A DNA stretch of 64,000 nucleotides. It comes from Candidatus Aphodosoma sp. GTDB taxonomy: Bacteria > Bacteroidota > Bacteroidia > Bacteroidales > Paludibacteraceae. Shown one piece after another: positions 6,580-62,245 of this stretch. The DNA is taken from NCBI GenBank assembly GCA_045126975.1, contig JBGVPL010000001.1, forward strand, positions 8,642 through 72,641, written 5' to 3'. The first letter of the stretch is position 1. The number at the start of each line of letters is the position of its first letter. Made by a program: the position numbers and the translations under genes. Under the pieces are notes generated by a model. It made no database searches. It was not told the DNA's origin and saw only the letters and a list, made by a program, of their open reading frames with translations.

Positions 6580-6606
6580 ATTACTAATTACTCATTACTA
6601 ATTAAT
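6580..6606. repeat. Tandem heptamer array ATTACTA/ATTACTC x4 abutting the mscS-like start codon
   Basis: The units attacta attactc attacta attaata run directly into the ATG at 6607. Confidence 0.7.
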
Positions 6607-7862: not shown

Positions 7863-8426
7863 ATGTTTGATAGATTTCTTGATTTAGATGTTTATATGCA
7901 AGTCTTTTGGTCGCTTGCTTTGGTATCAACTGTAGTTTTTTTGATACAAATGGTTATGACCTTTATTGGTCTTGATAGTGATACAGAAATGGGGTCGGGT
8001 TTTGATGATGTGGAAATGGAAGGTGTGGCAGGATTTTTCTCATTTCGTAATTTTGTCAACTTTTTGCTTGGCTATGGTTGGGGTGGTGTATTGCTTGCCG
8101 AGTCTATAAAAAATATGCTTTGGTTGCAATTAGCAGCTTTGGGTATTGGTTTTTTACTTGTACTTATTTTTGTTTTCGTATTGCGTCAGGTGATGAAACT
8201 TGCAACTGATAAAACTTTCCGTCTCGAAGAGGCTGTAGGTCAGGTGGCTGATACCTATTTACGTATTCCCGCTACTAAGTCAGGTTCGGGTAAAATACTT
8301 GTAAGTGTGCGTGGTTCGATACACGAATTGGAGGCAATGACCGAAGGTGACGAAATCCCTACAGGAGCAAAAGTGCGTGTAACAAAAGCTATCGGTTCCG
8401 AATTGGTCGAAGTGGAAAAAATTTAG
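7863..8426 (+). CDS. NfeD/YqiJ-like membrane protein (partner of flotillin)
   Basis: TM helices plus a C-terminal OB-like NfeD domain (GKILVSVRGSIHELEAMTEGDEIPTGAKVRVTKAIGSELVEVEKI), immediately upstream of a flotillin gene. The ATG at 7863 is preferred over the TTG at 7857. A TAACTTTG -7 box lies at 7833-7840. Confidence 0.75.
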   Translation: MFDRFLDLDVYMQVFWSLALVSTVVFLIQMVMTFIGLDSDTEMGSGFDDVEMEGVAGFFSFRNFVNFLLGYGWGGVLLAESIKNMLWLQLAALGIGFLLVLIFVFVLRQVMKLATDKTFRLEEAVGQVADTYLRIPATKSGSGKILVSVRGSIHELEAMTEGDEIPTGAKVRVTKAIGSELVEVEKI

Positions 8427-8427
8427 A

Positions 8428-8462
8428 TAAGGAACAAGGAATAAGGAATAGGGAACAAGGCT
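8428..8462. repeat. Tandem heptamer array TAAGGAA/CAAGGAA/TAGGGAA
   Basis: Five 7-nt units start 2 nt after the nfeD-like stop. Confidence 0.8.
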
Positions 8463-8463
8463 G

Positions 8464-8507
8464 CTCTCATATTCCTCCCCTGTTTTAGGGAGGTGTCCGA
8501 ATGCTCG
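8464..8507 (+). repeat. GGGGAGG hairpin element, copy 1
   Basis: Sequence ctctcatattcctcccctgttttagggaggtgtccgaatgctcg. It contains the CCTCCCCT-GTTT-TAGGGAGG inverted repeat and is near-identical to copies at 8541, 40268 and (reverse) 16160. Confidence 0.85.
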
Positions 8508-8540
8508 TGAAAAAGCTGAAGCAGTAGGCGAAACTTTCTT

Positions 8541-8587
8541 ATATTCCTCCCCTGTTTTAGGGGAGGTGCCCAACGGGCGGAGGGGTT
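8541..8587 (+). repeat. GGGGAGG hairpin element, copy 2
   Basis: Sequence atattcctcccctgttttaggggaggtgcccaacgggcggaggggtt. An 8-bp perfect hairpin is followed by a G-rich tail and fused to a TTCAACT array. Confidence 0.9.
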
Positions 8588-8657
8588 TTCAACTTTCAAC
8601 TTTCAACTTTCAACTTTCAACTTTCAACTTTCAACTCTTAACTCTAAACTCTATAAT
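8588..8657 (+). repeat. Tandem heptamer array, TTCAACT x7 then CTTAACT/CTAAACT/CTATAAT
   Basis: Strict 7-nt period. The array ends 1 nt before the flotillin ATG (8659). Confidence 0.95.
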
Positions 8658-8658
8658 T

Positions 8659-10008
8659 ATGGCTAATCTTGCATTAATTGCTGTTATTTTGGTGGTTGTT
8701 GTATTTATCACCATTGCAGCTGTGATTCGTCGTTACAGACGTTGTCCTTCGGACAAAATTCTTGTAGTTTATGGTAGAACTGGTGGTGGCTCTGCTCGTT
8801 GTATTCATGGTGGTGGTAAATTCATTTGGCCAATCATTCAAGATTATGCCTATTTGAATCTTACACCTATTTCGATTGATGCAAACTTGACAAATGCACT
8901 TTCACGTCAAAATATACGTGTTGATGTACCTTGTCGTTTCACAGTAGGTATTTCAACCGAAGCAGATTCAATGAATAATGCGGCAGAACGTCTTTTGGGT
9001 TTGACATCTAATGAAATTCAGGAATTAGCTCGTGATATTCTTTTTGGTCAATTACGTTTGGTCATTGCTACAATGTCGATTGAAGAGATTAATAGCGACC
9101 GTGATAAATTTCTCGAAAATATCTCTAAAAACGTAGAAGTTGAGTTGAAGAAGATAGGTCTTCGCTTGATTAACGTAAACGTAACCGACATCAAAGATGA
9201 GTCGGGTTATATCGAAGCACTCGGTAAAGAGGCTGCTGCAAAAGCTATTAACGAAGCAAAAGTTAGTGTAGCAGAACAAGATAAATATGGTGAAATTGGT
9301 AAAGCCGAAGCAGTGCGTGATACTCGTATCAAGACGTCAGAGGCTAATGCTGTTGCTGTAAAAGGTGAGAACAATGCTCAAATTGAGGTAGCTAATTCTA
9401 ATGCTTTCCGTCGTGAGAAAGAGGCAGAAGCTAATCGTTTGGCTATTGCTGCTGAAAAAGTTCAACAAGCTAAAGCATTACAAGAAGCGTACGCTGCCGA
9501 ACGCGAAGCCGAGTTGGCTCGTGCCGAACGTGAGCGTTCAACTCAACAAGCCAATGTTATTGTGCCACAAGAAGTTGAAAAACAACGTCGCATTATTGAA
9601 GCAGAAGCAGAAGCTGAACGTCTTCGTGTAAATGCCAAAGGAGAGGCAGATGCGATTTATGCAAAAATGGAAGCCGAAGCAAAAGGTCTTTACGAAATTC
9701 TTACCAAACAAGCAGCAGGTTACGATCGTATGGTGCAAGCTGCTGGTGGTGATGCCAACAAAGCATATATGTTGCTCTTGCTTGAAAAATTGCCAGAATT
9801 GGTTAAAACACAAGTCGAAGCAGTTAAAGGAGTTAATATCGACCATGTTACAGTTTGGGATTCAGGCAATAATGCCGATGGCAAAGGTTCAACAGCCAAT
9901 TTCGTATCAGGTTTGATGAAATCAGTTCCCCCATTGAATGACCTCTTCGACCTAGCCGGAATGAATCTACCAGAATATCTTGGCAAAAAACAAGAAGAAA
10001 AAGAGTAA
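8659..10008 (+). CDS. Flotillin / SPFH (band 7) domain protein
   Basis: TM anchor (MANLALIAVILVVVVFITIAAVI), SPFH domain, and an Ala/Glu-rich coiled coil. The start is set at M32 of the ORF because the upstream 31 codons are read-through of the repeat array. Confidence 0.9.
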   Translation: MANLALIAVILVVVVFITIAAVIRRYRRCPSDKILVVYGRTGGGSARCIHGGGKFIWPIIQDYAYLNLTPISIDANLTNALSRQNIRVDVPCRFTVGISTEADSMNNAAERLLGLTSNEIQELARDILFGQLRLVIATMSIEEINSDRDKFLENISKNVEVELKKIGLRLINVNVTDIKDESGYIEALGKEAAAKAINEAKVSVAEQDKYGEIGKAEAVRDTRIKTSEANAVAVKGENNAQIEVANSNAFRREKEAEANRLAIAAEKVQQAKALQEAYAAEREAELARAERERSTQQANVIVPQEVEKQRRIIEAEAEAERLRVNAKGEADAIYAKMEAEAKGLYEILTKQAAGYDRMVQAAGGDANKAYMLLLLEKLPELVKTQVEAVKGVNIDHVTVWDSGNNADGKGSTANFVSGLMKSVPPLNDLFDLAGMNLPEYLGKKQEEKE

Positions 10009-11822: not shown

Positions 11823-11835
11823 TTCAAAGCATAGT

Positions 11836-11884
11836 GCATAATGCATAATTCACAATTCATAATTTTCAATTCTCAATTCTCAAT
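11836..11884. repeat. Tandem heptamer array GCATAAT/TCACAAT/TCATAAT/TTTCAAT/TCTCAAT
   Basis: Seven phase-locked 7-nt units in the nusA-infB spacer. Confidence 0.85.
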
Positions 11885-11894
11885 TTAAAAATAT

Positions 11895-14840: not shown

Positions 14841-14943
14841 TTAGACAAAAGATAATAGACACGAGATATAAGGCATATTTGTCTTGTGTCTCGTGTCTTT
14901 TGTATAATTTTCAACTCTCAACTCTTAACTCTTAACTCTTAAC
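14841..14943 (+). repeat. Intergenic spacer made entirely of 7-nt units: TAGACA-type array, its inverted complement (terminator-like hairpin), then a TCAACTC/TTAACTC array
   Basis: Fifteen consecutive heptamers run in one register from the base after the infB stop to the cvpA ATG. agacacgag (14857-14865) pairs with ctcgtgtct (14890-14898). Confidence 0.85.
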
Positions 14944-15708: not shown

Positions 15709-16578
15709 ATGAAAAGAGCTGTTATTATAGGTGCTACGTCGGGTTTGGGGCGTGAGATTGCGATGAATCTTGTGCGTGAGGGTTGGATGGTTGGTGTGGC
15801 TGGTCGTAGGGTGGAATTGTTGGAGGATTTGCAAAGTGTAATGCAGAGAGAGCAAAATATAATTCCTTCTGCTTTGCTTGCGGATGCTCGAGCCGAGCGT
15901 ACCTACAAACAGGGGGACAATATTGAGTCGTTGCGGGTAGAAATAGAGCGGATTGATGTTACGGCAGAGGATGCTGTGGAGGGAGTTGAAAGGTTGGTTA
16001 AGAAGTTGGGTGGTATGGATTTGTTTGTGAATGTGGCGGGCGTTGGTTTTCAAAATCCTACGTTGGACCCTGTGGTTGAGAAGCGTACGTTCGATGTGAA
16101 TGGGTATGGCTTTATGCGTATGGTGGATTGGGCGTATAATTATTTTAAAGCAACGAAACAACCCCTTAGTCCTACGGACAGCTCCCCTAAAACAGGGGAG
16201 CAATATGAGAGAGAGGGGCAGATTGCTATTGTGTCGTCGATTGCGGGTACTAAGCCATTGGGTACGGCGGTGGCTTATTCGGCTACGAAGCGTATGCAGT
16301 CGCATTATTTGACGGGGTTGGCGCAGTTGGCTCGTATGGAGGGGTTGAAGATTAGGTTTACTGATATTCGTCCCGGGTTTGCGGCTACGGATATTTTGAA
16401 TCCTAATAAGCATTATCCGATGATGATGTCGAAAGAGTATGCTGGGCGATTGGCTACGCAGGCGATATTGAAGAAGAAGCGTGTGGCGGTAATTGATTGG
16501 AAGTTTGCGGTGTTGACATTCTTTTGGTCGTTGATTCCGAGATGTGTGTGGGAGAGATTGACTTTTGTGAAGAATTGA
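15709..16578 (+). CDS. SDR family oxidoreductase (289 aa, carries repeat-derived inserts)
   Basis: TGxxxGxG motif (GATSGLGREIA), NVAGVG, and catalytic YSATK. Confidence 0.85.
   Translation: MKRAVIIGATSGLGREIAMNLVREGWMVGVAGRRVELLEDLQSVMQREQNIIPSALLADARAERTYKQGDNIESLRVEIERIDVTAEDAVEGVERLVKKLGGMDLFVNVAGVGFQNPTLDPVVEKRTFDVNGYGFMRMVDWAYNYFKATKQPLSPTDSSPKTGEQYEREGQIAIVSSIAGTKPLGTAVAYSATKRMQSHYLTGLAQLARMEGLKIRFTDIRPGFAATDILNPNKHYPMMMSKEYAGRLATQAILKKKRVAVIDWKFAVLTFFWSLIPRCVWERLTFVKN
16160..16214 (-). repeat. GGGGAGG hairpin element, copy 4, inverted and in frame inside the SDR CDS
   Basis: The reverse complement ctctctcatattgctcccctgttttaggggagctgtccgtaggactaaggggtt aligns over ~50 nt with copies at 8464 and 40268. 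It is translated as PLSPTDSSPKTGEQYERE. Confidence 0.85.
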
Positions 16579-19027: not shown

Positions 19028-19137
19028 AATTCATAATTCACAATTCATAATGCATAATTAGCCATTCGGAGTTAATTTTGAACTATGAATTGTACATTAT
19101 GAATAAATTATGAATTATGCATTATGAATTATGAATT
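19028..19137. repeat. Composite palindromic element: AATTCAT/AATTCAC array, CCATTCGG core hairpin, then an inverted ATGAATT/ATGCATT array
   Basis: Left array 19028-19062, core gccattcggagttaatttt, right array about 19085-19137. The second permease ATG (19124) is the first base of an ATGAATT unit. Confidence 0.85.
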
Positions 19138-20371
19138 AATAAATGAGATTTGGCAGACGATTACGCGCAACAAGAGTCGTAGTTTGTTGACGGCTTTTGG
19201 GGTGTTTTGGGGTGTGTTTATGTTGGTGGTGATGGTGGCACTTGGCAGTGGTATCAGTCGAGGCATTATGGGACAGCTCGATGGTGTGGCACAGAATACA
19301 TCGATGATGTTTCCAAGTAATACGTCTATGCCGTATAAAGGATTCAAAAAAGGACGCACGTGGAATATGCATTCCGACGATTTAGTGGCAATGGAGCGCG
19401 AGTTCCCAGAATTGAAATATATCTCGCCTGTGATGTGGGTAAATAATGTAGGTAAAACAGCAAGAGGTACGAAGTCGGAGGAGTATAGTATGATGGGGTA
19501 CGATGCTAACTATTTCAAGATGTATCCGTTGAAAATGGTGCAAGGGCGTTGGATTAACGACATAGACCTTCGCGATACTCGAAAAGTGTGTGTCATAGGC
19601 GAAAAGGTGTTGAATGACCTCTATAAACCAGGCGAAAAAGCTGTGGGCACATTGTTGAGAGTAGGTAGTTCGTACTATACCGTGATTGGCGTAGTAAAAA
19701 AAGTTTCTGATGGTGTCAATTTCTTTGGAAATATGGATGAGATGTTGTTGGTGCCATATACAACAGCTCAAAGAATTCAAAATAGTGGTGATAAGATTGA
19801 TTGCCTATGTATTACGGCGTATGACAATGTGGAAATTGGGGATGTAGAAAAGCGCGTGGCGGCATTCGTTAAAGAGCGCAATTTAGTGAATCCCGATGAT
19901 GAAGCTGCATTGGAGTTGATAAATCTAAAAAAAATATTTGATTCGTTCTCGATGTTGTTTGGTGGGTTGAATTTTCTTGTGTGGATTGTAGGATTGGGTA
20001 CATTGTTGTCGGGTGTGATTGGGGTAAGTAATATTATGCTTGTTACGGTGCGTGAACGTACACAAGAGATAGGTATTCGTCGTGCATTAGGAGCTACACC
20101 GTTCACGATATTGAAACAGATAATGAGTGAGAGTGTGGTACTTACGGCAATAGCTGGGTTGGCTGGTTTGGTGTTTGCAGTGCTGGTATTGAGTGTGGTT
20201 GATATGGTTATGGCAATGCAACCTAATCCGGTTTTGCCATCAATTCAGTTGTCTTTCTCGTTGTCGATAGTAGCATTGGTGGTCATCATACTTGCTGGCA
20301 TGTTTGCTGGGTATTTGCCATCTAAACGAGCTCTTAGCATCAAAGCTGTCGAAGCTCTTCAAGATGAATAA
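19124..20371 (+). CDS. ABC transporter permease (MacB-like periplasmic domain + FtsX), paralog of 17777..19027
   Basis: Colinear with the preceding permease (ERTQEIGIRRALGAT). Confidence 0.9.
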   Translation: MNYELINEIWQTITRNKSRSLLTAFGVFWGVFMLVVMVALGSGISRGIMGQLDGVAQNTSMMFPSNTSMPYKGFKKGRTWNMHSDDLVAMEREFPELKYISPVMWVNNVGKTARGTKSEEYSMMGYDANYFKMYPLKMVQGRWINDIDLRDTRKVCVIGEKVLNDLYKPGEKAVGTLLRVGSSYYTVIGVVKKVSDGVNFFGNMDEMLLVPYTTAQRIQNSGDKIDCLCITAYDNVEIGDVEKRVAAFVKERNLVNPDDEAALELINLKKIFDSFSMLFGGLNFLVWIVGLGTLLSGVIGVSNIMLVTVRERTQEIGIRRALGATPFTILKQIMSESVVLTAIAGLAGLVFAVLVLSVVDMVMAMQPNPVLPSIQLSFSLSIVALVVIILAGMFAGYLPSKRALSIKAVEALQDE

Positions 20372-23005: not shown

Positions 23006-23048
23006 TTTTTTGGGGAGAGGGGATTGTTTGCTTGAGGGTAAGGTTATA

Positions 23049-23110
23049 GTATGTTTATCCTATATTTATGGTATATTTATCCTATATTTATGGTATGTTA
23101 TAGTATAGGT
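23049..23110 (+). repeat. 22-bp tandem repeat (2 full copies plus a partial)
   Basis: Copies agtatgtttatcctatatttat and ggtatatttatcctatatttat, then partial ggtatgtta... Confidence 0.85.
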
Positions 23111-33005: not shown

Positions 33006-35360
33006 TTAAATTTTAATACAAATCAATTTTTGTGTGATTTTTGAACCATTAAGATGGGTAGCTTGAATTACTAATATATATAACCCTGCAGGTATTGTCT
33101 CGCTGTTAGAGTTGGTTCCATTCCAAAGAGTATAACTTTGTGGAGTAGAGAGTTGATTGTCGGTGATATGGCAGACATGCGCTCCATTTCGTGTATAGGC
33201 ATTGATGGAGATAGTGTAGCCTGCTGATGGGAGATTGTGGTGAATGACAAGGTGGTCTTGATGCCCATCGTTATCGGGCGAAAAGGTAGTGTTTTCGAGC
33301 CAGAAGTGTTGGCTTGACTCGTTGTTTTCGAGATTGATGTTTTGAGAATTTTGCCAACCAGCAGTGTTTTGAGAATTTTTATTAACCACCTCCCCTTTGG
33401 GTTCTCCCCTTAAGATAGGGGGAGAATACATAGCACTACTGCTCCAATTGTCAGGCGATTGGGTAGGAGCCATTGGGTCGATGCGTTCGAGCGATATATC
33501 GTGCAAGTCGGTGAGTAGGGGGTGATGCCATGAGTCGGAGTAGTGTATTTCATCTATAATATTCCCACTGCGGTCGGTGAGTACGAGAGAGCCTTCGGTT
33601 GCAGGCATTGATGGTAAGGTTGATACAAAGTATATAGATTGTGGATTAACCTCTAACGCACAATGGATTGTACTTGTGTCGGGTGAGATTACTGCGAATC
33701 CACGTGGCGGTAATATTTTGCTTGTTGAACAGAATATTTTTGAGTTTTTTAGGTTATTGTCTTCATCTCTATTTGAAAGCATTAGGCGACTGAGGTCGAT
33801 ATAGAAATCGCTGTTGTTGTAGAGTTCGACGAATTTGCTATTACCACTGCTTACGTATGGCATTAACTCGTTGAAAATTACATCTATATATTGCGCTTGG
33901 TGGGGTAGCGCGAGGGTGATAGTGGTATCGGGCATACTCCAATTACTCACGCATCTTATATCCGAAAAAGTGATGTCGATAGTATATGTAGAGTCCAGTG
34001 GCTCAACGAGGTATAGGTTGAGTATTTCGCGTTGAGGCTCTACCCAATTGAGCGATTTGAGCGAATTGCCCGTTATAGATATAGATTTTTGAAGTTCAAT
34101 GATTTCGCCTTGCATTGGTTTATTGAAATAGATTTGTATAGAGCGGTTGTTTTCTATGCCAAAACTTGTGATGCAAGGTATTAACTCATCAGGAATTGAG
34201 CAAGCAATACTATTTATTTCGGCAGGTGTACCTCCTCGTGGGTCAATCGAAGGCCCCCATGTTGTAGAGTTAGAGAGAGGATTGTTAGGGTCGTGGCGTT
34301 CGAGCGACCAGCCTCCGTCGGCTTTGAATGGCTCGGAGGCGTACCAATCGGTTGTGTATTCGACAAAAGAGATAGTGTTGTTTTGTCTGTTCTTTAGTGT
34401 GAGTAGATTGCCATCATTTGTGAGTGCAGGCATAGATTCTACGATGCAGATTTTGTGGGTAATAGCTGAGAGTTCGAGTGCAGAGTTGTATGAACAAAGC
34501 ACTGCATAATCGTTAGGCTCAAGTATATAGTCACCCAATGTGCCAGTTTTGGCAGAAGTGGCGATTTTGCACCCTTCGAGGGTAAGAGTGCGGTCGGTAG
34601 TGTTGTAGATTTCTATCCATTCCACTTCGGGTAGTTGTACTGATGGATTAGGCTTTGCCATGATTTCTGTAAATACAATATCGCCAGCATTTATCAGTTC
34701 TGTTTCAGTAGGCTTATCGCCACAATTCACACTATTGATGCGGAGATTGTAAGGATTATTCGGGTTTTCGAAAAGGAGAAAGCCTGTAGATGTTGAATTT
34801 TGTATTGAATTGAGAGTTGAGAATTGAGAGTTGAGAATTTCTGTGTCAGCTGTATTACATTTTATTTGCCAATTTTTGTTGTTGTGGAATATTAGGCAAG
34901 AGAGATTGGTGAAACCATAAGGGATTGAACGTTCGGAAGTTGCTATTATTTCGGTTGTTTTGTTCTCGTAAATGAAATATATAAGTCTGTTTTCTAAATT
35001 TATTTCCAAAAAGAATCCAGCTCCGTCGCTGAGAGAGGGTAATGAGGATGATAGGTAGAATCGGATTATGCCAGTTGAATTTTGTGTAAGTTCGAATGTT
35101 ATGTTGCATCCCCACCAAGTGTTGTCTGTTATAGTGTTGGCTGTGCGGAATGAGCCTTTTTTCAATTGGCTATCGGCAACCTCTCCCGTAGGGTGTAATT
35201 CAACGGCATATTTATCATTGTTTTCTACTATTTTGGCATCCATGTCGGTCATAAACCATCGAGGATTAGTTGTATAATTACCATCTGAAAAGTCGTCGTA
35301 GAATTGGGCAAAAGAGATGTTGGCGAAAAGCAGAAGTAGGAATGTTAAATAATTTTTCAT
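33006..35360 (-). CDS. Lamin tail domain (LTD x2) protein with a T9SS type B C-terminal sorting domain
   Basis: Signal peptide MKNYLTFLLLLFANISFAQ. LTD motifs FTEIMAKPNP...VEWIEIYN and FNELMPYVSSGNSKFVELYN. C-terminal FSPDNDGHQDHL...WNGTN...IPAGLYILVI. The start is set at M23 of the ORF. Confidence 0.75.
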   Translation of the reverse strand: MKNYLTFLLLLFANISFAQFYDDFSDGNYTTNPRWFMTDMDAKIVENNDKYAVELHPTGEVADSQLKKGSFRTANTITDNTWWGCNITFELTQNSTGIIRFYLSSSLPSLSDGAGFFLEINLENRLIYFIYENKTTEIIATSERSIPYGFTNLSCLIFHNNKNWQIKCNTADTEILNSQFSTLNSIQNSTSTGFLLFENPNNPYNLRINSVNCGDKPTETELINAGDIVFTEIMAKPNPSVQLPEVEWIEIYNTTDRTLTLEGCKIATSAKTGTLGDYILEPNDYAVLCSYNSALELSAITHKICIVESMPALTNDGNLLTLKNRQNNTISFVEYTTDWYASEPFKADGGWSLERHDPNNPLSNSTTWGPSIDPRGGTPAEINSIACSIPDELIPCITSFGIENNRSIQIYFNKPMQGEIIELQKSISITGNSLKSLNWVEPQREILNLYLVEPLDSTYTIDITFSDIRCVSNWSMPDTTITLALPHQAQYIDVIFNELMPYVSSGNSKFVELYNNSDFYIDLSRLMLSNRDEDNNLKNSKIFCSTSKILPPRGFAVISPDTSTIHCALEVNPQSIYFVSTLPSMPATEGSLVLTDRSGNIIDEIHYSDSWHHPLLTDLHDISLERIDPMAPTQSPDNWSSSAMYSPPILRGEPKGEVVNKNSQNTAGWQNSQNINLENNESSQHFWLENTTFSPDNDGHQDHLVIHHNLPSAGYTISINAYTRNGAHVCHITDNQLSTPQSYTLWNGTNSNSETIPAGLYILVIQATHLNGSKITQKLICIKI

Positions 35361-39340: not shown

Positions 39341-40216
39341 ATGAAAATAGGTATAATACAACAATCAATAACTCCCGATGTGGAGGCAAACAAGAAGATG
39401 CTACGTGACGAGATAGTGAAAGCAAGTCGTGAGGGAGCTGAACTTGTAGTACTTCAAGAGTTGCATAATACACCTTATTTCTGTCAAACAGAGAATACTG
39501 AGTTGTTTAATCTTGCAGAGCCAATACCTGGTCCGTCAACTGAATTCTATTCGCAAGTGGCGGCTGAGTGTGGTGTTGTGTTAGTTACTTCGTTGTTTGA
39601 GCGTCGTGCTGCAGGTTTGTATCACAATACTGCTGTGGTGTTTGAAAAAGATGGCTCTATTGCAGGAAAATATCGCAAAATGCACATTCCTGATGACCCA
39701 GCTTATTACGAGAAATTCTATTTCACTCCAGGCGACTTAGGTTTCGAGCCAATTCAAACTTCGGTTGGTCGTCTTGGTGTATTAGTTTGTTGGGATCAAT
39801 GGTATCCTGAAGCAGCTCGATTGATGGCATTGGCAGGAGCGGAACTCTTGATTTACCCTACTGCTATTGGTTGGGAAAGTACTGATACTGATGAAGAAAA
39901 AGCTCGTCAACGAGAGGCTTGGATTACTGTTCAACGCGGTCATGCTGTGGCAAATGGATTGCCTGTAGTTAGTGTGAATCGTGTAGGGCATGAGCCTGAC
40001 CCAAGTGGTGCAACTAATGGCATTTTGTTTTGGGGTAGTAGTTTTGTGGCTGGTCCTCAAGGCGAGTTCCTCTATCAAGCACCATCAGATAAAACCGACC
40101 GTAAGGTGATAGATGTTGATATGAAGCGTAGTGAAAATGTGCGCCGTTGGTGGCCATTCCTTCGCGATCGCCGCATCGAAAACTATGGCGATATCACAAA
40201 ACGATTTTTAAAATAA
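39341..40216 (+). CDS. aguB: N-carbamoylputrescine amidase (CN-hydrolase family)
   Basis: The nitrilase-superfamily E-K-C triad context (VLQELHNTPYFC; YRKMHIPD; VLVCWDQWYPEAAR), and pairing with aguA. Confidence 0.9.
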   Translation: MKIGIIQQSITPDVEANKKMLRDEIVKASREGAELVVLQELHNTPYFCQTENTELFNLAEPIPGPSTEFYSQVAAECGVVLVTSLFERRAAGLYHNTAVVFEKDGSIAGKYRKMHIPDDPAYYEKFYFTPGDLGFEPIQTSVGRLGVLVCWDQWYPEAARLMALAGAELLIYPTAIGWESTDTDEEKARQREAWITVQRGHAVANGLPVVSVNRVGHEPDPSGATNGILFWGSSFVAGPQGEFLYQAPSDKTDRKVIDVDMKRSENVRRWWPFLRDRRIENYGDITKRFLK

Positions 40217-40371
40217 GGAATAGGGAACAAGGAATAAGGAATAAGGAGCAGGGAACAAGGTCGTCCGATATTCCTCCCCTGTTTTAGGGGAGGTGCCCGT
40301 AGGGCGGAGGGGTTTTCAACTTTCAACTAAAAAAACGGTGGGTCTCGCTACTCGTTACTTGCTACTAAATA
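40214..40371 (+). repeat. Composite repeat block: TAAGGAA-type array (starts on the aguB stop), GGGGAGG hairpin element copy 3 (40268-40316), TTCAACT x2, then a CTCGCTA/CTTGCTA array
   Basis: Same module order as the block at 8428-8657. Element copy 3 is atattcctcccctgttttaggggaggtgcccgtagggcggaggggtt. Confidence 0.9.
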
Positions 40372-47009: not shown

Positions 47010-47224
47010 TCTTTTTGGACGACTATTATTCTGCTACAGCATGAGATGGTTGAGGTTGTGTTTAATGCCGCGAGGTTTCCTAAACTCTCAACTCTCAACT
47101 CTCAACTGAGAATATGTTTAGTATCTAAATCATTTAGACTCAATGCTCCGTCATTGACTACTTGAATGATTGCTTAAACAAAAAAAAGTAAAAAGAAAGT
47201 AAACTATTAAAAAAACAAACAATT

Positions 47225-55885: not shown

Positions 55886-56000
55886 GGCGGATAATGTGAA
55901 AAATATAGGTGTTTTTACAACGGATAATGTGAAAAATGAGTATAAATTACGGCGGATAATGTGAAAAAAGTATGTGTTTTTATGGCGGATAATGTGAAAT
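55886..56000 (+). repeat. Four direct repeats of (G)GCGGATAATGTGAAAAA at 32-33 bp spacing, upstream of the AAA ATPase gene
   Basis: Copies start at 55886, 55920, 55951 and 55984. The last copy, preceded by AT, reads ATGGCGGATAATGTGAAA and resembles the gene start ATGGCAGAGAAAATGAAG at 56022. Confidence 0.85.
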
Positions 56001-59573: not shown

Positions 59574-60506
<933 letters not shown>

Positions 60507-60561
60507 ATTTCGAATAATTTGAAATTTGAAATTTGAAATTTGAAAGTTGTTTGTGTTGTAT

Positions 60562-61430: not shown

Positions 61431-62147
61431 ATGTTACTTTTACAAGAAACACAAATGGTAGCAACAATGGCTGCCGACACATTGAATGCTATGGCTCCAG
61501 TGGTTGAAGAGCCAGCAAAACTTAACTTTTTTGAGATGTGCCTCAAAGGCGGTTGGATTATGATTCCGCTTGCGTTGATGCTCATTTTTGCTATTTATAT
61601 TTTTATTGAACGTTTGATTGTTACGCGTCAGGCTTCGAAAGAGGACGCTACGTTTATGAATCGTATTAAAGATTATATTTATGATGGTAAACTTGATGCA
61701 GCATTGAAACTTTGTCGTGATACAAAATCGCCTTCGGCACGTATGATTGAAAAAGGTATCTCTCGTCTTGGTCGTCCGATGTCGGATGTGTTGGTGGCAA
61801 TCGAAAATGTTGGTAATATTGAAATTGCAAAACTTGAAAAAGGACTTTCGTTGTTGGCTACTATCTCGGGTGGAGCTCCGATGTTAGGTTTCTTGGGTAC
61901 TGTGATGGGTATGGTGCAAGCTTTCTTCGAAATGGAACAAGCTGGTGGTAACACAATCAACCTTAGTCAGTTGTCTGGTGGTATTTATACAGCAATGGTT
62001 ACTACAGTAGCAGGTCTTATTGTGGGTGTATGTGCTTATTTTGCATATAATTATCTTGTAGGTCGCGTGAACGAAGTGATGCGTCGTCTTGAAATGCGTA
62101 GCATGGAATTCCTCGATTTGCTAAATGAACCAGCAGCAGTTAAATAA
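61431..62147 (+). CDS. exbB: MotA/TolQ/ExbB proton-channel family protein
   Basis: Three TM segments and a conserved C-terminal core (LATISGGAPMLGFLGTVMGMVQAF). Confidence 0.9.
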   Translation: MLLLQETQMVATMAADTLNAMAPVVEEPAKLNFFEMCLKGGWIMIPLALMLIFAIYIFIERLIVTRQASKEDATFMNRIKDYIYDGKLDAALKLCRDTKSPSARMIEKGISRLGRPMSDVLVAIENVGNIEIAKLEKGLSLLATISGGAPMLGFLGTVMGMVQAFFEMEQAGGNTINLSQLSGGIYTAMVTTVAGLIVGVCAYFAYNYLVGRVNEVMRRLEMRSMEFLDLLNEPAAVK

Positions 62148-62245
62148 TTCATAATTCACAATTCATAATTCATAATTAACCATTCGGTGTTAATTTTATG
62201 ATTATGAACTAAAAATTATGAATTATGCATTATGCATTATGAATT
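62146..62245. repeat. Composite palindromic element, second copy: AATTCAT/AATTCAC array, ACCATTCGG core hairpin, inverted ATGAATT/ATGCATT array
   Basis: Left array 62146-62180 overlaps the exbB stop. Core attaaccattcggtgttaatttt. Right array 62197-62245. Same architecture as 19028-19137. Confidence 0.9.

Follow-up and report, generated by a model that had tools for sequence, protein, structure and literature searches.

In the 64-kb window analysed here (64,000 nucleotides of a contig from Candidatus Aphodosoma sp., Paludibacteraceae), a short hairpin element is found between genes and also, in frame, inside genes. This raises the question of the nature of this element and of the way in which it spreads. 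The first-pass annotation of this DNA had listed six copies. All six are recovered where it had placed them, by pattern matches and by an HMM trained on these copies, which was used alongside explicit counts of base pairs and triads. Run against the window, the HMM returns exactly the same six sequences (E values of 4e-19 to 5e-12) plus one weak match at 15907-15927. The hairpin pattern CCTCCCCT-N5-AGGGGAGG, allowing up to three mismatches, gives four matches in the window versus 0.03 expected, and the subfamily pattern gives four versus 0 expected. The count of six has nevertheless to be raised by one, to include a decayed copy in the SDR coding sequence (Table 1).

Table 1. Copies of the element and adjoining heptamer arrays in the 64-kb window.
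Feature	Position	Strand	Basis or remark
AAGGAAC/AAGGAAT heptamer array	8429..8460	+	upstream of A1
A1, truncated 5' half plus 39-nt spacer	8462..8535 (copy 8464-8507)	+	HMM, strain alignment
A2, intact copy	8542..8587	+	HMM, E = 3.6e-19
A2, TATT	8542-8545		
A2, pyrimidine arm CCTCCCCT	8546-8553		
A2, loop	8554-8558		
A2, purine arm AGGGGAGG	8559-8566		
A2, hairpin 2 (GCCC-AAC-GGGC)	8568-8578		
A2, mirror tail (GGAGGGG)	8579-8585		
A2, TT	8586-8587		
TTTCAAC/AACTCTA heptamer array	8587..8653	+	abuts the A2 tail; copy number differs between strains
Seventh copy, decayed long form, inside SDR CDS	~15856-15925	-	weak HMM match, protein and DNA alignments
A4, GCTCCCCT subfamily, inside SDR CDS	16160..16205	-	HMM
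B1, CTCCCCCT subfamily, partly decayed, in LTD/CHU_C gene	33384..33431	-	HMM
AATAAGG heptamer array	40212..40260	+	upstream of A3
A3, intact copy	40269..40314	+	HMM, DNA fold, triplex finder
(CTCAACT)n heptamer array	60031..60063	-	3' of B2; also at the empty site
B2, CTCCCCCT subfamily, hairpin 1 decayed, in nadK	60059..60115	-	alignment with the empty site, L001 and L002

A2 and A3 differ only in the loop of the second hairpin (AAC and GTA, respectively). Folding of A2 as DNA yields both hairpins (z = -3.5), and a triplex finder matches it with 0 mismatches. A1 is a real copy but not a complete one: hairpin 1 carries a 1-nt deletion, only the beginning of hairpin 2 is present, and the copy lies in a 72-nt block that is subject to presence/absence polymorphism, many near-identical strains lacking it (L187, L189, L191, L193-L196). 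The structure of A4 is intact (DNA fold, z = -5.0); the strand opposite to it, within the SDR CDS (15709-16578, plus strand), reads PLSPTDSSPKTGEQY. In the seventh copy, TATT-GTCCCCCT-GTTTG is followed by a degenerate purine arm and part of a long-form module, and the whole falls within a 34-residue insertion of the SDR relative to its orthologues. B1 folds weakly (z = -1.5). It is located in frame between the LTD and CHU_C domains (Pfam) of an 806-aa, type IX secretion-sorted protein. B2 is a 57-nt in-frame insertion encoding CYSPSVLGGVPKGGGGQTL in nadK (59574-60509, minus strand), with junctions ambiguous by 2 nt (TC). The peptides quoted in the first-pass annotation are indeed encoded by these genes (YSPSVLGGVPKGGGG in NadK, YSPPILRGEPKGEVV from B1 in the LTD/CHU_C protein, SPKTGEQYE in the SDR).

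Further copies exist beyond the window. In a scan with one genome per species, at least 92 stretches match, and the stretches listed hold at least 149 HMM matches, with at least 137 good copies. The hosts are mostly Candidatus Aphodosoma and MAGs designated 'Paludibacteraceae/Bacteroidaceae bacterium', from animal guts. The repeat is a real, abundant mobile family of uncultured gut Bacteroidales, with a length of about 46 nt (range 46-50 nt). Copies are found in both orientations and, inside coding sequences, on either strand. Inverted doublets are arranged head-to-head, and 15 of 16 associate unlike subfamilies. By eye, the element is enclosed by an outer stem or by terminal inverted repeats in a few subgroups only.

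The element had been described as palindromic. The hairpin is confirmed, but a second covarying hairpin and a mirror tail accompany it. From 5' to 3', the order is TATT (126 of 149 copies have it), a pyrimidine arm of 8 nt, a loop of 5 nt, the complementary purine arm, a mini-hairpin linker of 11-15 nt, often with a C-GNA-G triloop, and a 7-nt G-rich tail repeating the purine arm in mirror order. Four subfamilies are distinguished by compensatory changes in the arms (CCTCCCCT/AGGGGAGG, CTCCCCCT/AGGGGGAG, GTCCCCCT/AGGGGGAC and GCTCCCCT/AGGGGAGC). Pairing is observed in 97% of cells, with double changes at 7 of 12 pairs, a level reached by 0 of 500 shuffles; for the 8-bp arm pair alone, 98% of cells are paired and double changes occur at three pairs. 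Intact copies fold as DNA with z values of -3.5 to -5 (ViennaRNA, which leaves the triplex out of the model). The mirror rule for the tail gives canonical triads in 93% of cells; shuffles reach 79%, slid registers no more than 61% and direct-repeat registers 60-65%. In the Bacteroidales family, this covariation corresponds to few independent events (the four subfamilies). In the GTCCCCCT and GCTCCCCT subfamilies, the outer triad holds a non-canonical position. At A2 and A3, the triplex finder gives perfect 7/7 matches.

The same mirror arrangement is found at loci encoding DUF559 proteins, discussed below. There, a perfect mirror third strand lies within 27 nt in 139 of 302 perfect pyrimidine/purine hairpins counted strand-wise, the ceiling being about half because each hairpin is counted on both strands; only 29 of the 302 have a direct copy in place of the mirror. 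The third strands of the 139 hairpins carry A or T opposite A. T in that position agrees with T·A-T triads and excludes an alternative Watson-Crick pairing. A structure in which the tail pairs with the pyrimidine arm instead (CCCCT/AGGGG) was rejected: it explains how long the G run is but not the bases 5' of the A, and it fails in lineages with T opposite A in the third strand. A G-quadruplex was rejected as well, there being just three long G runs and the covariation being with the pyrimidine arm. From its sequence, the design is that of a predicted class II purine-motif intrastrand triplex, as in E. coli BoxC/PIT/TM_ECO. Class II triplexes and PIT elements reportedly go back to Hoyne and colleagues in 2000. 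In a single-stranded element, the tail would fold back antiparallel onto the hairpin, with G·G-C and A·A-T triads. Such a triplex was formed in vitro by TM_ECO, and an in vivo DMS footprint of TM_ECO in E. coli gave no protection (PMC4666352). It may also form in vivo in the repeats described here.

The mirror-tail design places the element beside BoxC/TM_ECO rather than with plain palindromes. These intrastrand triplex repeats are found in E. coli, other Proteobacteria and Cyanobacteria (Holder et al., 2015, PMC4666352). Both groups have the class II order of pyrimidine arm, purine arm and mirror purine third segment, which tolerates A/T, and both consist of short (34-50 nt), G/C-rich, dispersed, multi-copy repeats showing local instability and strain polymorphism. 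Both also form inverted doublets of two different subtypes (in E. coli, type A is always with type B) and have a DUF559 gene alongside, ycjD in E. coli. However, the Bacteroidales repeats show no similarity to the TM_ECO sequence and do not conform to its pattern, CCCTCNCCC-N3-6-GGGNGAGGG-N3-GGGNGAGGG, with 9-nt stems and an always intergenic location. Their arms are of 7-8 nt instead of 9 nt, and a structured mini-hairpin (11-15 nt) occupies the second spacer, which measures 3 nt in TM_ECO; the ITxF search, limited to loops of 1-6 nt, does not cover this length. Moreover, they have a conserved 5' TATT, their doublets are head-to-head whereas those of E. coli are tail-to-tail, about a third of the copies are in frame in genes, and the host phylum is Bacteroidota. 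Thus, they have the TM_ECO/BoxC design but stand outside that sequence family.

Triplex repeats of the BoxC/PIT/TM type have been known since the 1990s, and we know of no mechanism for their spread and of no partner protein. A survey published in 2015 found no link between them and mobile elements (PMC4666352). In the present data, small cassettes encoding a DUF559 nuclease, of the Vsr-like PD-(D/E)xK type, have this repeat design at their ends. DUF559 genes flanked by inverted copies occur at loci L021, L062, L047, L096-L098 and L125. The proteins of L021, L047, L062 and L091 match PF04480 with 89-104 bits (cut-off 20.6), PDB 3HRL is matched with E = 2e-20, and the NCBIfam name is merely 'DUF559 domain-containing protein'. 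To our knowledge, no function has been assigned to this large family of small nucleases, for which a structure has been solved.

Across 80 DUF559 loci drawn from varied metagenomes, the density of triplex motifs is 1.98/kb within 200 nt of the gene versus 0.11/kb elsewhere, an 18-fold enrichment. A motif is found within 300 nt of the gene in 34 of 39 DUF559 protein clusters, at loci whose GC content ranges from 35 to 68%. An inward-facing motif is present upstream of 44 of 78 DUF559 genes versus 2 of 36 control ORFs (Fisher p = 9e-8). Relative to the gene, the flanking motifs are oriented differently in different lineages (e.g. L140 versus L103). Cassettes with 81-100% identical proteins are inserted in unrelated flanks; homology between them begins at the first base of the motif (L152/L156) or 8-12 nt ahead of it (L103/L107/L130/L131). 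L021 and L096, both of the Bacteroidales family, share a doublet-gene-motif block and nothing else. In E. coli, a degenerate motif is found at the 3' end of ycjD, and a full TM_ECO downstream. Strains having ycjD contain more TMs, a difference that is confounded by phylogroup. Beside the approximately 137 Bacteroidales copies, just 3-4 DUF559 genes were seen, and none in the window. A comparison of insertion and array junctions gave neither a clear target-site duplication nor a clear cleavage site.

The DUF559 association joins the question of how the repeats spread to that of the role of DUF559, and leads to the hypothesis that YcjD and other DUF559 proteins bind and nick the folded motifs. 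In the explanation that we favour, and hold to be rather probable as a whole, the family consists of non-autonomous repeats of Aphodosoma-like gut Bacteroidales, with a triplex design shared with the ends of DUF559 cassettes, which persist as gene-less relatives of these ends and survive in frame inside genes. Such relatives would be the solo copies as well as the head-to-head doublets, in which unlike subfamilies are joined. The DUF559 nuclease may recognise and nick the folded ends, which would then be moved, copied or excised; DUF559 would thereby be the enzyme mobilising the repeats, in a partnership resembling that of RAYT transposases with REP/REPIN sequences. More tentatively, and with a little less than even confidence, DUF559 and triplex-forming terminal motifs may represent an unrecognised class of mobile elements across bacterial phyla, BoxC/TM_ECO and the Bacteroidales family being gene-less derivatives mobilised in trans. 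Such a class would give PF04480/YcjD a function and explain the spread of intrastrand-triplex repeats.

Alternatively, DUF559 may be a selfish, homing-type nuclease gene that settles in triplex repeats or doublets. The repeats would then be landing pads that spread otherwise, for instance by recombination or gene conversion, or when structured DNA is replicated wrongly. A Vsr-like fold is used by the homing endonuclease I-Bth0305I, which has been grouped with Vsr and DUF559 (PMC3424549). DUF559 genes are indeed located between motifs or between doublets; gene-less doublets occur, those of E. coli being oriented as an empty target would be (PMC4666352), and E. coli strains devoid of ycjD keep 1-4 motifs. 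In the search for an empty site of ycjD in E. coli, the alternative allele proved to be the eefRABCD operon and hence no empty site. Homing is nevertheless unlikely in our opinion. The start of cassette homology at the outer edge of the motif argues that the motifs travel with the gene, and the motif variant differs from one DUF559 lineage to the next. Moreover, solo copies far outnumber the genes, and sit in coding sequences and heptamer arrays rather than in doublets.

It may also be asked whether the repeats are ordinary REP/REPIN- or MITE-type sequences, mobilised by a Y1 (RAYT/IS200) or DDE transposase, with the tail and DUF559 being incidental. They are short hairpins that have a conserved tetranucleotide, TATT, at the 5' end and form inverted doublets, as in REP/BIME/REPIN systems, where a single small nuclease gene is likewise flanked by repeats and hundreds of copies are gene-less. 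However, the flanked gene is here a PD-(D/E)xK DUF559 and not an HUH/Y1 enzyme, the 5' motif differs from the GT[AG]G of REP, and a mirror tail is present. No RAYT homologue adjoins any copy in 1.09 Mb of loci. The best tblastn match of E. coli RayT in these sequences has E = 0.012, and a search with the local Y1-like ORF as query gave no gene adjoining a copy. This single ORF, in L011 and some 1 kb away from a copy, scores 20.1 bits in Pfam against a cut-off of 23, and ispE lies between it and the copy. As to MITEs, the element is asymmetric, with neither terminal inverted repeats nor a clear target-site duplication. The covariation of tail and purine arm in mirror sense is not what a plain hairpin predicts, and the 18-fold enrichment near DUF559 also speaks against a transposase of this kind, which we find improbable.

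An action as RNA (for example as a small RNA, a cis-acting regulator, or a hairpin with a stabilising or terminating effect) would agree with the two covarying hairpins and with the many intergenic copies. T runs follow A2 and A3 but are absent from most copies, and an RNA does not account for the occurrence of the element in both orientations and on either strand inside coding sequences. At gathering thresholds, the Rfam scan of the window returned one tRNA as the sole match and nothing at the repeats, and the permissive scan of 8380-8680 gave only a chance match to MicA (E = 0.7). C-G-closed GNA triloops, GCGAAGC included, are said to be hallmarks of DNA mini-hairpins, according to work of Hirao and colleagues in the 1990s. 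RNA does not support purine-motif triplexes (PMC4666352). A role as RNA is very improbable.

The copies inside genes are insertions, as orthologues or near-identical strains lack the inserted 18-20 residues. Of the two outcomes that the first-pass annotation had named as refuting it, a lack of further copies and an ancestral origin of the copies in genes, neither was observed. In near-identical strains, the NadK sequence is shorter by exactly 57 nt; the 18 residues of A4 are missing from many SDR orthologues (including P0130, P0135, P0136, P0140 and P0152), and the 19-20 residues of B1 from all LTD/CHU_C orthologues (P0241-P0247, P0251). We give practically no credence to ancestral coding motifs or chance similarities, which the likeness of peptides between proteins (YSPPVLGG...) might suggest: apart from these orthologues and strains, the same DNA is found intergenically in both orientations, and zero matches are expected by chance. 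Target-site duplications, which the first-pass annotation had thought worth looking for, are nowhere clear: comparison of the filled and empty nadK sites gives only a 2-nt ambiguous junction, and the SDR junction is blurred by divergence. It should be noted that deletion through replication slippage could also account for the nadK polymorphism.

Tallied over the family, 44 of 137 copies (about 32%) lie within stop-to-stop open reading frames 150 codons or more in length, and Pfam identifies genuine genes around such copies, e.g. those for FeoB, MatE and CcsA. The element can be read without a stop in four of its six frames, and only those four are used in long ORFs; thus, copies or copy-plus-array combinations with a length that is a multiple of 3 survive within genes. 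Encoded peptides include YSPPVLGGVPEGGGG and PLSPTDSSPKTGEQY. The surviving inserts are Gly/Pro-rich stretches of 15-20 residues, probably in surface loops, that then decay in place. Their common residence in frame and their absence from orthologues make the analogy with Rickettsia palindromic elements (RPEs), drawn in the first-pass annotation, an apt one. RPEs too are short, structured in-frame inserts giving a tolerated peptide and present or absent among orthologues. They are about 100-150 bp long and known only from Rickettsia, and we know of no triplex design or partner nuclease for them. The repeats studied here are unrelated in sequence, measure 46-57 nt and often go together with heptamer arrays. 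The likeness is one of behaviour only: by sequence, length and host, they are not RPEs.

In this clade of gut Bacteroidales, structured repeats and heptamer arrays insert in frame into housekeeping genes (nadK, feoB, ccsA, those of MATE pumps). The inserts vary among near-identical strains, generating variation in protein length that would be misread by gene callers and in orthologue-based analyses of MAGs. If the proposed mechanism holds, the DUF559-repeat system together with the heptamer arrays would act, in the Aphodosoma-like clade, as a generator of in-frame protein insertions. The (CTCAACT)n array 3' of B2 is translated within nadK as NSQLSTLNS.

Copies are often located next to or within unstable heptamer arrays. 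The module order of a TAAGGAA array, the element and a TTCAACT array, reported earlier, does occur at the two intergenic sites in the window, but the family as a whole does not follow it: a period-7 array, mostly (C/T)TCAACT, directly follows the tail in 24 of 105 copies, and only 4 of 105 have one upstream. The non-general module order, the seventh copy, the mirror-tail triplex design of this family and its association with DUF559 are new to the present analysis. Very small mobile repeats, mutually nested and located within tandem heptamer arrays in heptanucleotide-rich genomes, are reportedly also found in cyanobacteria (small dispersed repeats and STRR arrays, attributed to Elhai and colleagues in 2008); they belong to another phylum, have other sequences, and are said not to have been described as triplex-type or as frequent in-frame inserts. 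At the individual sites, the ends of A2 abut the arrays directly, with no target-site duplication, and A2 is the sole copy at its site in 7 of 10 related strains. At the A3 spacer, the alternative allele of other strains is an unrelated sequence rather than an empty site. Finally, in a 99%-identical strain, a 75-nt module is nested inside A4 of the SDR gene.

Direct reading of the window bears out the six copies of the GGGGAGG hairpin element named by the first-pass annotation, with the CCTCCCCT-GTTTT-AGGGGAGG hairpin as described there. With up to 3 mismatches allowed, the hairpin pattern gives 4 matches in the window versus 0.03 expected from shuffles; the pattern of the diverged subfamily gives 4 versus 0 expected. 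An HMM trained on the six copies recovers them at E 4e-19 to 5e-12, plus one weak match (15907-15927). Translation reproduces the peptides quoted for NadK, SDR and an 806-residue protein, the last having lamin-tail (LTD) domains and a CHU_C type IX secretion signal (Pfam). Outside the window, a scan of GTDB species-representative genomes with a degenerate 30-nt core pattern found at least 92 stretches with the element, in which the HMM has at least 149 matches, at least 137 of them scoring 25 bits or more. Among the matches listed, the hosts are nearly all Candidatus Aphodosoma spp. and MAGs named "Bacteroidaceae bacterium" or "Paludibacteraceae bacterium"; the gut samples are from humans, yak, buffalo, goat and roe deer. 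Three of the MAGs have contigs with 88-92% nucleotide identity to the window, which places its source among uncultured, Aphodosoma-like Bacteroidales. This is a real, abundant and structured repeat family, and the earlier finding is confirmed and richer than first described.

Element copies in the window and DUF559 ORFs bracketed by inverted copies or doublets
Feature	Sequence	Position	Strand	Remark
Element copy	window	8464-8507		
Element copy	window	8541-8587		
Element copy	window	16160-16214		
Element copy	window	33384-33431		
Element copy	window	40268-40316		
Element copy	window	60066-60112		
Seventh copy, decayed long-form	window	~15856-15925	-	inside SDR CDS, within a 34-residue insertion missing from orthologues such as P0136; unlisted in the first-pass annotation
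DUF559 ORF	locus L021	1659-2111		
DUF559 ORF	locus L062	6420-6800		
DUF559 ORF	locus L047	3807-4229		

The element opens with TATT (126 of 149 parsed HMM matches among those listed), followed by a pyrimidine arm of 8 nt and the purine arm complementary to it, with a 5-nt loop (GTTTT or GTCTT) between the two. After a further 1-2 nt come hairpin 2 (2-5 bp stem, 3-5-nt loop), a G-rich tail of 7-8 nt and TT. Four main subfamilies, set apart by compensatory changes, have the arms CCTCCCCT/AGGGGAGG (41 copies among the matches listed), GTCCCCCT/AGGGGGAC (36), CTCCCCCT/AGGGGGAG (34) and GCTCCCCT/AGGGGAGC (11); the CTCCCCCT group is the one previously called diverged. Stems of hairpin 2 are highly variable in sequence and keep their pairing (GCCC/GGGC, GTCC/GGAC, GGTC/GACC, GGCC/GGCC, CCAC/GTGG, GC/GC). 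Compensatory change is seen in both hairpins: when 50 distinct copies are aligned free of gaps, 97% of the cells are paired and both sides have changed in 7 of 12 pairs, and no shuffle or slid register comes near this pairing. As single-stranded DNA, intact copies are predicted to fold into exactly the two hairpins (z -3.5 to -5), the decayed copies in NadK and LTD having z -0.35 and -1.5, respectively. C-GNA-G triloops are frequent in hairpin 2, including GCGAAGC, a well-known DNA mini-hairpin of exceptional stability, reportedly from work by Hirao and colleagues in the 1990s.

Far from being a chance run of G, the tail mirrors the purine arm in each subfamily: GGAGGGG for (A)GGGGAGG, GAGGGGG for (A)GGGGGAG and TGAGGGG for (A)GGGGAGC. 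Canonical purine-motif triads, with G over G-C and with A or T over A-T, make up 93% of the cells in the mirror register, versus 79% in shuffles (maximum 83%), at most 61% in slid registers and 60-65% in direct-repeat registers. The tail gives the element the predicted make-up of a class II purine-motif intrastrand triplex, that is, a pyrimidine domain, a purine domain and a 3' reverse-Hoogsteen domain (Hoyne et al., 2000; Holder et al., 2015, PMC4666352). Since purine-motif triplexes do not form in RNA (PMC4666352) and the triloops are of DNA type, single-stranded DNA is indicated as the active form, and it can be proposed that the element folds in cells as a single-stranded DNA triplex.

Among intrastrand-triplex repeats, the element stands as a new variant from Bacteroidales. 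The E. coli representative of the class, BoxC/PIT/TM_ECO, reads CCCTCNCCC-N3-6-GGGNGAGGG-N3-GGGNGAGGG. Triplex formation has been shown for it in vitro, all its copies are intergenic, and it is found in inverted doublets that comprise two subtypes; neither a function nor a mobilising agent was found in those studies (Hoyne et al., 2000; Holder et al., 2015, PMC4666352). The Bacteroidales element differs in sequence and arm length, and its long, structured linker exceeds the 1-6-nt loop limit of the search in the TM_ECO paper. As in E. coli, doublets are heterotypic (15 of 16 among the matches listed), and 14 of the 16 are head-to-head. Wide in-frame residence in genes is unusual for the class.

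At copy-rich loci, inverted copies or doublets bracket a small ORF of the DUF559 family (PF04480), Vsr-like PD-(D/E)xK nucleases (PMC3424549). A metagenome scan with an alignment of the bracketed proteins, in which loci were picked by protein alone, gave 80 DUF559 loci from soils, sediments, fresh water and guts (GC 35 to 68%). In these, a generic class II motif finder (7-nt arms, at most 1 mismatch each) returned 370 raw matches versus 0 in shuffled sequence; merged motifs amount to 1.98 per kb within 200 nt of the DUF559 gene versus 0.11 per kb elsewhere. An inward-facing motif is found upstream of 44/78 genes, at the 3' end of 37/73 and on both sides of 28/71, as against 2/36, 1/36 and 0/36 for control ORFs of the same loci (p 1e-6 to 1e-7). 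Grouping the proteins at 70% identity or more gives 39 clusters, of which 34 have a motif no farther than 300 nt away. The motif is lineage-specific in sequence (CCCCTCC/GGAGGGG/GGGGTGG, CTCCTCC/GGAGGAG/GAGGTGG, E. coli-like CCCTCTC/GAGAGGG/GGGTGAG) and conforms in every case to the mirror rule, A being faced by A or T. In an unbiased strand-wise count, where each hairpin is counted on both strands and the ceiling is about half, the 302 perfect hairpins include 139 with a perfect mirror third strand and 29 with a direct copy. T-for-A substitutions in the third strand rule out that the tail is explained by alternative Watson-Crick pairing. Cassettes whose DUF559 proteins are 81-100% identical lie in unrelated flanking DNA. 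The common sequence begins with base 1 of the upstream motif in one pair with identical proteins (L152/L156) and 8-12 nt before the motif in L103, L107, L130 and L131, while two loci of the Bacteroidales family (L021/L096) have only the doublet-gene-motif block in common; the motifs are thus the ends of a discrete unit placed in different contexts. Several of these cassette motifs have the GGCCCGAAGGGCC mini-hairpin linker, as in the Bacteroidales family. A C-GAA-G mini-hairpin linker also occurs in high-GC soil DUF559 lineages. Class II motifs are strongly associated with DUF559 cassette ends across phyla.

In E. coli K-12 the only DUF559 gene is ycjD. It has a degenerate triplex motif at its end, and a full TM_ECO follows about 170 nt downstream. 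In this region (1351040-1351830), about 40 nt of the ycjD 3' end are duplicated downstream, ahead of the full TM_ECO, and a perfect 14-bp inverted repeat lies upstream of the gene. Present in 3378 of 5426 complete E. coli genomes and missing from 38%, ycjD takes the place of eefRABCD in phylogroups A, B1 and C according to a published survey (PMC12817139). Megablast of a single TM_ECO sequence against an evenly spaced genome sample detects about 4.4 places in ycjD-positive genomes and about 1.8 in ycjD-negative ones, in agreement with the strain differences reported in 2015; this is suggestive only, because it is confounded by phylogeny. No literature linking DUF559 or ycjD with BoxC/TM repeats was found, subscription-only literature lying outside the search.

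The association suggests that DUF559 may recognise and nick the folded triplex, and that solo copies may be mobilised in trans, in the manner of RAYT/REP. The main rival explanation is that DUF559 is a homing-type gene using the repeats as targets. A plain REP/RAYT model is contradicted, as the only RAYT-like ORF in 1.09 Mb (L011 5143-5667, minus strand; HFH motif; Pfam Y1_Tnp 20.1 bits, below cut-off) is some 1 kb away from an element copy, with ispE between. If functional, the DUF559 link would explain the spread of triplex repeats and would give a function to a large uncharacterised protein family. Another locus, with four element copies, has an ORF (L027 226-588) that we take by eye to be a four-helix bundle resembling the 23S rRNA intervening-sequence protein.

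Gain and loss of the element are seen between strains. At the 8.5-kb site, 7 of 10 strains with an identical downstream protein have a single intact element. A block of 72 nt (shortened copy and spacer) is added in the window and in three further strains, and heptamer copy numbers vary throughout. The alternative allele at the 40.3-kb site is an unrelated spacer. In NadK, where the loop after RAEI is hypervariable among 120 close orthologues, two proteins otherwise 98-100% identical to that of the window lack exactly CYSPSVLGGVPKGGGGQTL; their DNA (L001, L002) lacks exactly 57 nt beside a CTCAACT array present in both alleles, the filled/empty junction being ambiguous by 2 nt. More distant orthologues (87-91% identity) have the element in this position too, so the near-identical strains may owe their empty site to a precise loss. 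The nadK and 8.5-kb comparisons contradict a MITE model.

Of 105 copies among the matches listed, 24 have a period-7 array directly against the tail and only 4 have one upstream. The module order proposed earlier (TAAGGAA array, element, TTCAACT array) thus holds locally in the window and not as a general rule. Heptamer arrays may be preferred neighbours or targets of the element. They occupy almost every intergenic spacer of the window (units AATTCAC, AACTCTC, AAGGAAT, GAGACAC and others; for instance 6580-6604, 11829-11886, 14913-14943, 19028-19138, 34810-34836, 47083-47107 and 62144-62245), vary in copy number between near-identical strains, and lie in some cases inside CDS, giving 7-residue periodic peptides such as NSQLSTLNS.

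Within genes, 44 of 137 copies among the matches listed lie in open frames of at least 150 codons. Pfam domains that flank or surround a copy bear out that such genes are real; they include FeoB (with the copy in its cytosolic helical domain), MatE, a cytochrome c assembly protein and a transglutaminase-like protein. Two of the six element frames are closed because the loop creates TAG or TAA. The other four are all in use, as Y[SC]PPVLGG... (the commonest), IFLPCLRGG... and, on the opposite strand, NPL.LR.LPLKQG.N and PL.PTD.SPKTGE.Y, often co-translated with the downstream heptamer array as NSQLSTLNS. That such copies are ancestral coding sequence is contradicted by orthologues without the inserted residues: besides NadK, many SDR orthologues lack 18 residues and 8 of 8 LTD/CHU_C orthologues lack 19-20. 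One SDR orthologue has another copy at a different site. The in-gene copies are, as first proposed, in-frame insertions. An RNA function is contradicted too, Rfam giving only tRNA in the window and nothing credible at the element.

The SDR gene of a strain 99% identical to the window (L199) has an extra 75-nt module nested between purine arm and hairpin 2, which long-form copies elsewhere carry in this position too and which may be a second mobile module targeting the element. It reads ACCGAC...GCAAGAGCAGAAGGCA...TGCCTTGCAAGGAGGAGG...GTCAAA, occupies exactly this position in three different subfamilies, and is also found at L027 3378-3445, L081 ~300-378 and L090 5763-5870; in SDR it is in frame (25 residues) and present or absent between near-identical strains. 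Elsewhere (L058 4132-4385), a unit of about 112 nt is repeated three times in tandem as CTAAACTAAAAATAAACACTCAAAACTATGG..., element, ...TTTCAACTAA; its upstream context is shared with many unrelated loci (L042, L075, L093, L057, L038, L029, L040), and the opposite strand of its upstream part has a TAnnTTTG-like box. Outside the element family, the window also has a 33-nt tandem repeat (55886-55999, 3.5 copies) and a 22-nt one (23044-23099, 2.5 copies).
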